Assembly (NCBI GenBank): GCA_000934665.2 | Contig: JYFJ02001411.1 | Location: 1 to 64,000 of the forward strand | Origin: Catajapyx aquilonaris | Taxonomy: Eukaryota | Length of the DNA: 64,000 bases | Direction of reading: 5' to 3' | Shown: positions 26,801-53,800 of the stretch, piece after piece | Numbering within the stretch: the stretch's first letter is position 1 | How the letters are laid out: the number at the start of each line of letters is the position of its first letter | The notes under the pieces: model-generated | What the model was told of the DNA's origin: nothing | Database searches by the model: none | What the model saw: only the letters and a program-made list of their open reading frames with translations | Translations under genes and position numbers: made by a program

Positions 26801-29800
26801 CCCATACCATTCCACTTTGTCACTCTTAATTTTTCAGTATTATTCAGTGATGCATAATATGTAATTGGTGCCTTGCTGTTCAGTCCATAGTGACACTTAC
26901 TGTCCATCTTCCTCCTTGGTGATGTCTAGTCCAAAAGCCTGGATTGCTCCAGTTGGTGCACCAGGAGCTGCTCCTGGAGGTTCTGCAGGGGCTGCAGGTG
27001 CTGGAGCTGCCACTGGCTCTTTAACTGGCGTTGGTTCCTGAGCTGGCGGAAGTGCAGGTTTCTTCATGGGTTTGAATGCCATCTTGTCCTCCTCCTTCTC
27101 CTCAGGTTCCTTCTCCAGTTGTGGCCCAATCATGAGGGACATTAGCACACCAGTCACAAGCTTCACAACATAAGTCACACTGAAACCACTGTAGTAGAAC
27201 AGATAGAAGATGAGCTTGAAAAAGCCAACCACCAACTCCATAGTGGATCGCTCTGAAAGCTCAGCAATCTTCTTTTTGATGTTGGATGGAGACAGAGTTT
27301 GGAACACTAGCACTATCCCATCCTTCAAGTTGCATAACCAGTGCTTGATGGTTTCCTTTACACCTCTGCGAATAAATTTACGAGTAACATTTAGCATGTG
27401 TGGGTCCATATACCAAACTGTCACATTAGTTTATGATGGTAATGAAGGGTAGCCAAAGGCTGGCTTCAGATACAGGTCATATGGATATATCTCAAAGTCT
27501 CCCTCAAGGCACAAGCAGTTATACCAACCTTTCCTCCTCTTCCTCATTCATGTACTTGTATGAAGATTCTCTGGCTTTCCCAGACCCACCTTCATCTTCA
27601 GAGGTCATCAGTCCACTGGCATGTTGCATCTCAAAAATGGCATCTTCACAGAAGTCTACAAATGTCTCCAGCTTCTCTTTGTCTCCATCTTCATTAACAG
27701 TCGAGTAAAAGTATGCCCTCTTTGATTCCTGAAGAAGAAAGCACCAATGGCCAAATCCTTACAGGTCACCTTTTATTTTATTTTAAATAAAACCTATACA
27801 CTTGCCTTGATCTGAGGTTTCTCCCACTGTTCAATGTTTGATTCTTTAATTTCGAAGTACACCCGTTCAATCCTCTTACTACTACCCAGAATTTCAATTC
27901 TGCCCAGGAATGGTTCGAAATAGTTCAAGACACTGCTTGCAGTCTCCAGGAACCTCTGAAGTCTGCCAAAATATAAGAACAATATTAAAAAGCATATTCA
28001 TAGTTGATTAATGTAATTTCAGTCCAAAACTTGCCTCGGGTCATTGGGCATGTGCTCACTCAGGTTCGTTAGAAGGACAGCCAGATTAAAGCCAATGTCT
28101 TTGGCAGGGTTGTGGAAGCGCTCTGTGAACTCAATGTAGTCAATCTTCCCATCATGGTTTGTGTCACAGCAGAGCAAAAGGAATGTGATTTCCTCCCTGA
28201 AAGACAAAAATCAAATTATAATTCACTTGGATGTCAGTGAAACAGTACGGCCATTTTATGCTTGTAGAATATTATTTCCAACACAAGCGATCATTATGAC
28301 ATTACTTACGGCTCATAAGACTTCTGTTGCTCCATTTTCTCTTTGAATTCCCTTGGTGTTACATATCCATCTTTGTTTAGATCAATTTCCTGTAAAAGTT
28401 ATGTAAGGTTATTGAATCTTGTGTGCATTAACTGCAGTATAAGAAGTAACCTTCTGAAGACAACATATACTGATTTATTGAACATGATGATTTCTTTCTA
28501 GTAAACTGAATCACAAAGAGTCTAGCCTTCTGTGCTATTAATTTTGCTTAATGACTCTTGAAATGCCATAACTTAGCGTGCAGATGAGGATGAACTAAGA
28601 ATTAGACTACGCATCGAATCTACAAAAGGCATAGCTAGTCAGCTCTAAGAAATGTGCCAAAGAGTTCAGTGGAAATAATATCTCCGCTTCTCAATCAATA
28701 GTTTTCCAAGTGGTAATGAACATGAAGTAATAAATTCAAATTAATTGCATGAATTGAACCTCACGGCTTATGACCAATTTGAAGTGTGAAACAAAAAGTA
28801 AGTTACTATTTATTTTGCAGCCTAGAAAATATACACAGTGAGCCCCTGTTACCTGCAGATTCATTAAATTCCCTAGTTTCAGTTATCTGCAGTTTGAAAA
28901 TATTACGAAAATATTAAATAAAAGTGGGGGCCCACTGTACGTATCACAAATTTGAAATTTACATATAAAAATATCTGTTACATGTGATTCTGAAGAGTTC
29001 AAAACATTTATTTTTAGACATGATGCCAACAAAATGCGTGAAATATTTTCAATTACCAGATAAAGGAGATCATTGTGGTAAGCTCACTAAAGCGTGCAAT
29101 GGATGTTAATTGCATGACTGAATCTTTTTCTTTGGCTCTGTATTTCCAAGAAATTGATTTTCATTGATGCAACAGGAAATTTGAGAAAAAAAAACACTAA
29201 AATATGAATTCTAGGTATAGAGGTACAATATGGAACAATAGAGTCTGTACATCCTGAGGCAAAAGTGAAACGTGCCATACATGCATGCTATGCAAGCATG
29301 AAGAGAAGATTATTCATGCACATGTAATGATCATCAGTTAGGCATGCAAGCGCAATGCACACCAACCTGGAAGGATGTTGACGTAGTCAAATCCTTCAAC
29401 TTCAAGAACATATCGAAGTACCTGAGAATTATCTATAAGCAATTTAAAAAAAAAGAAGAGATAGTAAGAGAGAGGAACACTTATTCTGTTATAAACTCAT
29501 CACCACCACCCTTCCTGACTCCACACAAAATACAAAAACAAAAACAAATATTTCAAAAATAAAATATATAAGTGTGGGTGAGATGGTGAGTGTGGAGGTC
29601 CCAAGAGCATGTTACTAAACTGTAGCCCAAAAAAATTCACAACAGGAGCAATAATAACAGTCATCGTAATGCACACAACAGAGACTCAAGTTACCGATAC
29701 GCCAACTCAAAATGAGATACAGATATCCACAATAGTGAGGCAGTATGGGACAGGTGGCTAGGGATGGCTACCTGGAATGCTGGAGATGTTGTCAGGGCTT

Positions 29801-50800: not shown

Positions 50801-53800
50801 GGCAACACTACAGTGGAGCTTGGGAAAGAGTTAGGTTCAAAAACTTACTGATGGTTCTGTCAATCAAATCGAGGAACACTCCAAGCACATCCCCAACCTG
50901 CCACAATTTTCCACAGGATTCTGCAGACCCAGAGTGCACTTTCTCTTCCTTTTTTACATAGTTTTGGAGTGCACAGCAAATGAAAAAAGGGGGTGGAAAA
51001 AGCGTTAACACAACACATCAGCACCGGGCAAAAATCACACTTGTGGGATCAAACAGTTCCTCAAAAAATGTTTATAAAAAAAACAGGTGTTGCAGTGTAG
51101 GAGATATTGAACTTGGAGCAACCAAAACAAAACTCTGCACGCATGTGTAATGACAAAAAAGGGAGTGATTACTAAATTAGTCGCCCTTGATTTTTGCTTT
51201 CCGCTTACTTACTGATGGTTTTATCGTGCACATCAAGCATACAGCCCAGAACATCTCCCACTTGGTACTTTCTGCCACAGTGATCGCTTACACCGCTGTG
51301 CACCTTTGCAGCCTACACACATGTGCAAAAGATTACGGCTCAATTATGCAGGCAAAGAAGAACTAAGAATTTACTTCTGGAAAGGTTGTCTGCACCAAAA
51401 AATTGGCATGAATAAATACACTAGGTTGCATATAAAATAATAAGATACAACAAAGTCTGGAGTATCATCTCAATCCCTGTAAAACAAAAGCATGAGCAAC
51501 AGAAAGTAGAAAATAATACCACACACTCCAACATATTTAGTTCCAACTTACATTACTCATTGCCACGAGAATATGCATGTAGAAAGGGAGTGATGAAGTG
51601 GTGCAAACCCAGGAAACATTTCAAAATTAATCAACATATCCTACGTGTCATGGCATGTACTGAATCGTTTCCTTCTCAGTAGTTTTTGGTCTAATTCAAC
51701 AGATAAGCACATTATACAGTCAAGAGCAACATGACACATAGCAACATACCTACACATCTCAGGATCTTTCTCATTATAAATTATTTTGAAAGGTAACAGA
51801 GCTCTTTTCCTATTATCATAAATGACACTTCCATCAGGCATATGAATACTGGAAGGGTAATAATGTAACTTGGAACTTCAAAACAATTATTGGAGTTTAC
51901 ATTCTATTTTGCTATCTAAATGTGAAAAAAATACATCATCAATTATTACACATACACTACTAAGGATTCTACCTCACGTACGACCCATACCACCATCTTA
52001 TACTCATTAAACTTCCTAGTAATAGTTAGGCAATATAGTTTTCAACAATACAAATGCATTACTACAAAAATTTACCGAAGTATTTGTAATTATTATCAAT
52101 GCCACATGCATAAAATTGCCAGAAGTGACAGATAAAAACATTTAGAAACTCAACTGAGCTAGTTGAATGAATCTTACATTGTTATAATTGTAAATCAATA
52201 CGATATGTACAGTATACAACCTTGGAATGTCATGTCATTGGGCTTATTTTAAATTAGTAGCTCTGGAAGCAAGTAATAAAAATTCCTGGGAACTCACACT
52301 GTAGCCATCAAAAGCCCATGTGTATTCATCACTCCCGAGCTGACAACCTGGCGTGCAGTCCACACGTGCCCAGCCCACACGCATTGACCCAGCAGTCAAC
52401 ACATCCACCTCAAAATACCTGCCCAAAACGAAGACACATGGTTACTTTTGCAATCACACATTACCACCCTCACTCACCATTTCCCAGTGCTGACAGCATA
52501 GGTCTTTTCAACTCTGTATGTTCTGTAACTAGGCTGGCTTGACTCGCCTCTAGTTGATGCAAATGCTGTGAGAAAGTACATCAATCATAATGTGTCACAC
52601 AACATTCATCTTTTAAGTCAGTTCTAGATGTTGCTTAAACATCTCAACTATTACTACAAGTATTTTATCACAGCAAACAATATGTAAAATTGCTTCACCA
52701 TTGTCATGCGAGTCTCCAGTAGGCGGCTCAAGGTTGTACCCATACACCAGAAGGGTGCGTACAGTCTCACTGGCAGTGTCTCTGTTAGCCTTCTTGATAG
52801 CATCATCCACTTTTGAGTATGGAACCAGATGTGGACTCCTTTTCATATCGGGATCCTCATTAAGACCATAGGTCCAACCCTCCTGAATGCGCTCTTTGGC
52901 CCAGATGTTGTGTGTGTTCTCTGCCAGCTGGTCTACTAGCTCCTCCAGCTTGGTGGTAAGGGTTACAGCACTCAGATCCAGGGGAGCTGGCTTATAGCCA
53001 TTTGGTTGCAAGAAGGGCTCAGCAGGGAGGCGGACACTCTTTATTCGGGCAGGTGGTTTGTCCACTGTAATGTGGTAGCCCAATGCGAGGACAGTCCTGA
53101 AGGGAGAGAAAGGTTATAGCATTTAAACAATCAAAAGTATTCCTGCAATAAGGTGAATTGCCATCTTCACACCAGTTAATTTATGTTACAGTCTAAACTG
53201 GAGTACAACTTTTAAAAAGAGCATATTAATACAAGAGTTGTAACCTTTACATATGATATGACCTTTAGATATTTACATTTAGAAATACTTTGCAGATTCC
53301 AAAGGTTAATATTTGTGTATAATACATGTGCAGACTGTGCAGTATACAGTATATATCAATCATTTTATTTTTAAGTGCACACAGACTTTTAGGAGGCCTA
53401 TCGTACTTGAGAGTCTGTAAAGCCAGCTGAATGTCGTATCGTTTCTCGGCAGGGGGAAGTCGCTCGAATTGTATTAAACATGGATGTGTGTGGTCAAAGT
53501 CATCTCTGTACTCCCCATAGCGCCAGCCTGCATCAATCTTGTTCATAGCCCACAGCTCATGGATGTTCTCAGCCAGCCGGTCACGAATGTTCTCGATGTA
53601 GTTGGGAAGCATGATCTGTCAGTAACAATGCAAATGAAATCAAATAATTCAGATTGACATGTGATGCATTGATTATTACCGTGGAAGTGTCGACTAAATT
53701 TGGAACAAAGGCAGAATCATCTTGCATCTGTTGTGGGCCCATGAGAAGCCCCTTGGCTAGATCTCCAAAGAAAAAGCAAGGGTCAATCCTCAGCACTTGA

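Follow-up and report, generated by a model that had tools for sequence, protein, structure and literature searches.

Introduction

Arthropods are thought to have one ryanodine receptor (RyR) gene, so that splice variants would be the sole source of their channel types. Vertebrate RyR1, RyR2 and RyR3 differ in the calmodulin-binding helix and in the EF-hand region, and hence show functional variety at the modules considered here, but in vertebrates this variety comes from gene duplication rather than from exon choice, and their helices keep both a Trp and a Phe. Here we examine a window of 64,000 nucleotides (nt) from Catajapyx aquilonaris (contig JYFJ02001411.1, positions 1 to 64,000; all coordinates below are those of this window), which from its homologies carries most of one arthropod (pancrustacean-like) RyR gene with three clusters of tandem-duplicated exons. 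We consider it quite probable, given the arrangement of the exons, that these are three clusters of tandem alternative exons at each of which the spliceosome most likely takes one copy, each choice exchanging part of a different module of the channel.

The closest described system is the SPRY2 a/b exon pair of insects (IASI/ASI), known from Cnaphalocrocis, Bactrocera, Tribolium and Drosophila, which was reported from 21 of 26 insects (PMC6026295; here and below a PMC number stands for passages of the paper in question), is formed by exons 19a and 19b in Tribolium, and in a moth and a fruit fly is used to an extent that depends on the stage and the part of the body (PMC3342285, PMC3989282). The first of the three pairs in the window shares with it the site, the length of 33 residues, and the presence of two tandem copies, one of them of the 6kim_A type; the window gene differs in having three clusters, and it is only for the cited insects that use has been shown to depend on stage or tissue. 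Compared with this well-known switch, the one at the calmodulin site is barely described. Alternative splicing there is mentioned in one sentence on insect RyRs (Troczka et al., 2018, PMC6026295), which was all that a literature search for exclusive RyR exons at this site found (figures and most supplements lay outside its scope). Exons 22 and 23 of the fly RyR gene occur in disjoint isoform sets (PMC13171102), and we would guess that they correspond to the second pair described below, although the passages of these two papers give no exon sequences, exon types, age or division of calmodulin anchors. The fly gene does not occur in two supplementary files of PMC3228551. A pair of exons before the first EF-hand seems undescribed so far, as the literature search found no account of one (figures, most supplements and subscription papers lay outside its scope).

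The idea that splicing diversifies the one RyR gene of an invertebrate has long been current, and this framing is not new (PMC7644089, PMC3342285). Tissue-specific isoforms from one gene are established for unc-68 of Caenorhabditis elegans, in which 6 of 16 possible exon combinations were observed (PMC7644089), and the likeness to the case proposed here is that alternative exons give a single RyR gene its variety, that their use and function depend on the tissue, and that fewer combinations occur than are possible. The difference is that unc-68 varies through its alternative promoters and, in divergent region 2, through cassette or length variants, not through duplicated exons at the calmodulin and EF-hand sites, and the main-text passages of that paper do not mention calmodulin or the EF-hand (PMC7644089).

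The RyR Gene and Its Three Exon Pairs

The gene lies on the minus strand and was traced over at least 23903-56740, from which it may extend further upstream.

23903..56740, minus strand: RyR gene, traced part (tblastn blocks of RyR fragments from 23903 to 53618; Pfam domains beyond)

RyR fragments from the public collection form exon-sized alignment blocks from 53618 down to 23903 with 65-98% identity. Pfam places RIH at 55161-55580, MIR at 56378-56740 and SPRY in an open exon at 47937-49136, four RyR repeats were recovered as internal repeats of the window frames, and a canonical EF-hand 1 loop is encoded at the start of the exon downstream of pair 3. The RyR domain set is therefore present (MIR, RIH, SPRY, RyR repeats, EF-hand loop and homology to the C-terminal channel part), and because the MIR, RIH, SPRY and C-terminal homology blocks are all located in the window, most of the gene lies inside it. 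The best protein matches are arthropod RyRs. In the C-terminal third the identity is 65-70% to hexapod, collembolan, barnacle and lobster-like RyRs alike, and lower to those of chelicerates.

The initial annotation had placed three duplicated-exon pairs between 29367 and 51312, in SPRY2, in the calmodulin-binding helix and in the helix before EF-hand 1. These two positions are the exact outer exon borders of pairs 3 and 1, all three pairs exist on the minus strand, with splice sites, phase, open frames and homology all in agreement, and Pfam and solved-chain matches locate them in the three modules named. An AG precedes and a GT follows all six copies (6/6), the phase is equal within each pair, and in all three pairs each copy taken alone reads open into the downstream exon. 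The two copies are 264 nt apart in pair 1, 225 nt in pair 2 and 339 nt in pair 3, they share 19 of 33, 11 of 36 aligned and 15 of 22 residues, respectively, and in every pair the two copies match one and the same stretch of RyR homologues. Among the codons for these shared residues, synonymous differences are found in 12/19 (pair 1), 8/11 (pair 2) and 8/15 (pair 3), and since most conserved codons are synonymously changed, all three duplications must be old; the frames remain intact despite this age. A search for similar neighbours among all minus-strand open frames of the window yielded no fourth duplicated exon, only the RyR domain repeats and an intronic tandem repeat. The sequence features from which mutually exclusive exons have been predicted are a neighbouring position, similar length, matching splice sites and frame, and homology (PMC3228551), and all three pairs show every one of these features.

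Pair 1: The SPRY2 Exons

The four exons that make up the first site are as follows.

51213-51312, minus strand: pair 1 copy A, SPRY2 exon of 100 nt (AG/GTAAGT sites; contains GDVLGCMLD)
50849-50948, minus strand: pair 1 copy B, SPRY2 exon of 100 nt, arthropod type (AG/GTAAGT sites; match to 6kim_A)
52298-52417 (upstream border approximate), minus strand: constitutive exon upstream of pair 1 (ends WAFDGYS, then GTGAGT)
50077-50276 (3' border within 1-2 bases), minus strand: constitutive exon downstream of pair 1 (starts after CTACAG)

The copies are 64% identical over 33 residues (E 3.7e-12 in blastp of open frames against each other). Copy A, which aligns to RyR1 1136-1160, resembles the type of vertebrates and other phyla with its GDVLGCMLD motif, and among solved chains it matches 5vsn_A of RyR2 best (E 7.4e-5), with a further match to 4p9i_A. 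Copy B matches chain 6kim_A (E 3.5e-9). We take these three short RyR chains to be SPRY2 domains and 6kim to be from an insect. L003, a transcript-like contig of nearly full length, has the B type, its exon being 73% identical to copy B versus 42% to copy A. Because the equivalent of pair 1 in a fragment of this contig (residues 101-133) falls within the Pfam SPRY domain (59-178), the pair is situated in the middle of the domain. By site, length and homology, pair 1 is evidently the known insect SPRY2 a/b mutually exclusive switch, in which the choice would swap 33 residues in the SPRY2 core.

Pair 2: The Calmodulin-Binding Helix

At the second site the two copies differ slightly in length and are arranged as follows.

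34153-34265, minus strand: pair 2 copy A, 113 nt (AG/GTATGG sites; IDHPQQQ...ACF...SLHSMP)
33818-33927, minus strand: pair 2 copy B, 110 nt (AG/GTGAGT sites; solved match 2bcx_B)
34625-35011 (upstream border approximate), minus strand: constitutive exon upstream of pair 2 (ends VLYGLHM, then GTGAGT)
33275-33542 (3' border approximate), minus strand: constitutive exon downstream of pair 2 (alignment to RyR proteins, open frame)

The similarity of the copies to each other is weak (blastp E 0.026, with the 11 of 36 identical residues given above), and they match the same residues of RyR homologues in spite of it. Copy A aligns to RyR2 3576-3612 and RyR1 3610-3645, and the best solved match of copy B is 2bcx_B, a 30-residue RyR1 peptide (E 1.2e-4). 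We take 2bcx to be the calmodulin complex of the RyR1 peptide, and RyR1 Trp3620 and Phe3636 to be the hydrophobic anchors for calmodulin defined in the 2BCX work. The calmodulin-binding domain (RyR1 3614-3643) is a basic amphipathic helix, and in the alignments of both copies to its peptide window copy A reads Tyr and Phe at the two anchor positions and copy B reads Trp and Leu. Across the exons compared, the residues at these positions are distributed as follows.

Trp3620 position: other phyla, Trp in 6/6; A type, Trp in 3/14 (Tyr 9, Phe 1, Arg 1); B type, Trp in 9/9
Phe3636 position: other phyla, Phe in 6/6; A type, Phe in 13/13; B type, Leu in 9/9

From these alignments the anchors appear to be split in a complementary fashion, such that the A type keeps the Phe anchor and the B type keeps the Trp anchor, and the B types also retain PL(Y/F). 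The choice at pair 2 would thus exchange a calmodulin-binding helix with a Phe anchor, and usually Tyr at the Trp position (copy A), for one with a Trp anchor and PLY, and Leu at the Phe position (copy B), and the two isoforms should bind calmodulin or respond to it differently. Leu at the Phe3636 position was also seen in several single-type sequences whose calmodulin site otherwise resembles that of vertebrates (VEHPQ...WHKVLSKQRKRAVVAC; P0190-P0193, P0197, P0199, P0212 and P0249), and the change from Phe to Leu is therefore not unique to the arthropod B exon.

Metagenome contigs were scanned for a conserved exon located between pairs 2 and 3, and 80 loci around it were recovered. Four distinct arthropod-like loci other than the window (L001, L006, which equals L007, L008 and L035) have pair 2 in tandem, with a 113-nt exon of the A type followed within a few hundred bases by an exon of 110 or 113 nt of the B type, bordered by AG and GT, and a further contig (L012) begins with a B-type exon. 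Window copy B is 69% identical to that of L006. In proteins from Polyplax, Pollicipes and Nymphon the B type stands between VLYGLH(M/V) and H(R/S)AIN, which are the same flanking exons. The A types, window copy A among them, form one clade (support 98/99) in a tree built from 28 exon peptides, and a branch supported at 84/77 sets the B types to one side, a grouping that is not firmly shown. From this recurrence of both exon types across arthropod-like loci, pair 2 is old.

A profile made from six B-type exons was searched against 1.84 billion representative sequences, which are 50% identity clusters and hide isoforms. It had 78 matches, of which P0186-P0188 look like more arthropod B exons in the form of genomic open frames, most others seem to be of the undivided type found in other phyla, and a few, which are repetitive and match in several stretches, seem to be unrelated; a spliced B-type transcript was not among the 78 at this level of clustering. 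The switch at the calmodulin site may, judging from one contig, predate arthropods. This nematode-like metagenome contig (L024; best match an Ascaris protein at 65%) has two tandem exons for the calmodulin site, at 2335-2447 (113 nt) and 2580-2689 (110 nt) with AG and GT borders, the first copy without Trp and the second with WKKVL, and the second groups with the B side on a long branch (83/91). It is only a lead.

Two of the gene models with B-type exons have peculiarities. That of the louse Polyplax (P0084) starts inside the B-type exon, and that of the barnacle Pollicipes (P0101) has the motif repeated just ahead of it; in both models the duplicated exons seem to have misled the annotation.

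Pair 3: The Exons Before EF-Hand 1

The third site consists of two short exons that end where the EF-hand region begins.

29772-29837, minus strand: pair 3 copy A, 66 nt, with both Asp residues replaced (AG/GT sites, phase 0)
29367-29432, minus strand: pair 3 copy B, 66 nt, of the type found in other RyRs (AG/GT sites)
30742-30830 (upstream border approximate), minus strand: constitutive exon upstream of pair 3 (ends SASNVE, then GTAAGT)
28310-28389, minus strand: constitutive exon downstream of pair 3, with the EF-hand 1 loop (from sequence reading and frame)

The copies are identical at 48 of 66 nt (blastp E 1.7e-6; 1.5e-9 in a short-query run), and copy B aligns to RyR1 4058-4078 and RyR2 4013-4032. 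In L003 the equivalent residues are 73-94 and the Pfam EF-hand pair starts at 93, so that pair 3 ends where the EF-hand pair begins. All loci were scanned for an AG, a 66-nt open frame and a GT, and the 804 candidates were scored against copy B; scores of at least 20 were given only by true pair 3 exons, with 70 for window copy A and a background mean of -16. Two copies are present in the window, L001, L008 and L041, and one copy of the upstream type stands at the end of contig L025. A single copy was found in 14 loci (8 distinct peptides), which include all the insect-like loci. The five upstream copies all lack both Asp residues, which by alignment correspond to RyR1 D4063 and D4070, and all keep LKLK-x-L. 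The choice at pair 3 would swap the 22 residues leading into the EF-hand 1 loop, and copy A, with both Asp residues replaced, should alter the behavior of the EF-hand module.

Reading Frame, Introns and Control of Splicing

In pairs 1 and 2 the frame would account for exclusive use, because both copies or neither give early stops. Inclusion of A and B together leads to a stop at codon 63 in pair 1 and at codon 91 in pair 2, and skipping of both leads to a stop at codon 4 and codon 18, respectively. Exclusive use in pairs 1 and 2 is, on the exon sequences, very likely; double inclusion or skipping would give unproductive mRNA, for which the stops are computed and which nonsense-mediated decay would probably remove. 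Pair 3 is another matter, as its exclusivity would need a mechanism beyond the frame, and the scan of ungapped intron helices found none.

Competing RNA pairings and shared conserved intronic motifs, both of which the initial annotation had suggested as places to look, did not materialize. Ungapped helix scores were computed between the upstream, middle and downstream introns of each pair, a procedure that does not fully cover gapped or long-range structures, and compared with dinucleotide shuffles, which equalled or exceeded the observed score in 5-98 of 100 cases. The best case, the middle against the downstream intron of pair 3, was reached or beaten by 5/100 shuffles. No conserved intron block was found among L001, L006, L008, L035 and L041, in which only the exons align. 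Docking-site and selector pairing reportedly enforces exclusive splicing in Dscam exon 6 and 14-3-3 xi, which resemble the present case in having tandem homologous exons in an arthropod gene. However, the RyR clusters have two copies only and show no convincing intron pairing or conserved intron block, and the competing, conserved intron pairings that a docking-site/selector system requires were absent at every pair by the ungapped helix test.

Two hairpins within introns stood out from the shuffles, and the first of them precedes copy A of pair 2.

34400-34421 and 34579-34600, minus strand: arms, 22 nt each and 86% complementary, of a hairpin in the intron that precedes pair 2 copy A

Its helix score of 39 was reached in 0/100 shuffles, and in 1/60 in a second run, and it has no counterpart in L001 or L006. 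An inverted repeat in the intron upstream of pair 3 (30347-30369 and 30522-30544; 23 nt, 91% complementary, with the arms 152 nt apart) beat 100 of 100 shuffles and could represent a small inverted-repeat element and not a signal for splicing. Repeat pairs that flank the copies of pair 3 (29593-29608 with 29891-29906, and 28419-28430 with 29667-29678) were considered as signals and are at chance level by estimate and by shuffles. U12-type or too-short introns were likewise discarded as a cause of exclusivity, the donors being plain GT and the introns 225-339 nt long.

Alternative Explanations of Exon Use

A number of observations weigh against the proposal that both copies are used, one at a time, at each of the three sites. 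All six copies are known from genomic DNA alone, and the three proteins with the B type of pair 2 (from the louse Polyplax, the barnacle Pollicipes and the sea spider Nymphon) are genome annotations and not proven mRNAs. Copy B of pair 2 was not detected in L011, L014, L015 and L042, and the seven transcript-like loci carry the A or undivided type at pair 2 (7/7) and the standard exon at pair 3 (7/7). At pair 3, copy A was found in 0 of 83 proteins that span the site; 82 of these score higher against copy B than against copy A, and the single exception keeps both Asp residues. A protein search with the open frame around copy A gave 6 candidates, none of them scoring. The upstream copies also evolve fast, those of L001 and L008 sharing 12 of 22 residues versus 19 of 22 for the standard copy, and the frame of pair 3 does not stand in the way of taking both copies or neither. 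The default forms look to be copy B in pair 3 and copy A in pair 2.

The initial annotation had gone further and suggested that the three choices are coordinated, so that their combinations would give muscle-, neuronal- and heart-type channels and the tetramers would be mixed. We regard such coordination as doubtful, and the eight isoforms that three choices allow are arithmetic only. It would be in keeping with the position of all three sites in regulatory modules, with the differing use of the insect a and b exons by stage and body part (PMC3342285, PMC3989282), and with exon combinations that are linked to alternative promoters and tissues in C. elegans (PMC7644089). The lack of a shared intron motif or of an intron block conserved between species in the comparison above argues the other way, as do the alternative exons of fly larval muscle, which hybridization chain reaction fluorescence in situ hybridization (HCR-FISH) did not separate (PMC13171102).

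Pair 3 might instead not be mutually exclusive at all, with copy A an optional cassette beside a constitutive copy B that would give a rare doubled helix or serve a narrow cell type. For this pair all four splice outcomes (A, B, A and B, neither) stay open (4/4), copy B is the sole form in the 83 proteins and 7/7 transcript-like loci, and no RNA pairing that would enforce a choice stands clearly above the shuffles (best 5/100). We nevertheless hold the cassette distinctly improbable, since equal length, equal phase and homology are hallmarks of exclusive exons (PMC3228551), no doubled helix occurs in the protein set examined, and a doubled helix at the entrance to the EF-hand 1 loop would be likely to interfere with folding.

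Least probable is that some of the copies are decaying, unspliced relics of an old duplication. The likeliest candidate would be copy A of pair 3, with its fast divergence, its missing conserved Asp residues and its absence from the proteins and transcript-like contigs examined. Against this, the 66 nt, the open frame, the AG, the GT and the core pattern LKLK-x-L-(S/T) are all kept by the upstream copies of five separate contigs, one of which stands at a contig end, an AG and a GT at fixed places arise by chance in about 1/256 per locus, and the synonymous sites of A and B are largely changed, such that neutral decay would have had time to break the exon. The doubt that some duplicates could be dead pseudo-exons, which accompanied the initial annotation, is similarly countered by their counterparts in other arthropod DNA.

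Implications

With one copy taken at each cluster as the preferred explanation, a broader proposal can be made, albeit a tentative one that we think more likely to fail than to hold. The calmodulin-site pair would be an ancient switch of chelicerates, crustaceans, hexapods and possibly nematodes, with the two anchors divided between the copies after duplication, Phe in one exon and Trp in the other, so that one RyR gene could select either of two modes of calmodulin feedback. In one non-insect lineage the neighbouring pair 3 switch would in addition remove two conserved Asp residues from the helix that enters EF-hand 1. Jointly the two switches would let splicing set the feedback by Ca2+ and calmodulin, and exons would do what vertebrates do with RyR paralogues.

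Of the RyR exon switches the SPRY2 one is the only one studied so far. If the calmodulin-helix exons and the pre-EF-hand exons are truly swapped, both feedback sensors of the channel would be under splice control, and nature would provide two ready-made variants for structure-function work on regulation by calmodulin and Ca2+. No new principle is involved, as tandem exclusive exons are common in ion-channel genes. For annotation, gene models that choose one copy, that include both, or that break the gene in two between them, which seems to have happened in the louse, will be wrong.

Other Features of the Window

The SPRY exon, at 47934-49136, is a single open exon of 400 codons that holds the third SPRY domain and a long stretch rich in Ser, Arg, Lys, Glu and Pro. 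Homologues align to this stretch, an insertion specific to the lineage within a divergent region, poorly or with gaps. Elsewhere in the RyR gene, an intron contains a stretch at 40723-41380 that is related to another far downstream of the gene at 1639-2222 (56-76% identical in translation); both look like remnants of a repeated mobile element, and Pfam gave no match for 41062-41370. A short intronic tandem duplication at 43907-44147, whose translated frames are 69% alike, lies outside every RyR match. Downstream of the RyR gene, an open frame on the minus strand at 10126-11184 encodes a RhoGEF domain (Pfam E 1e-39).

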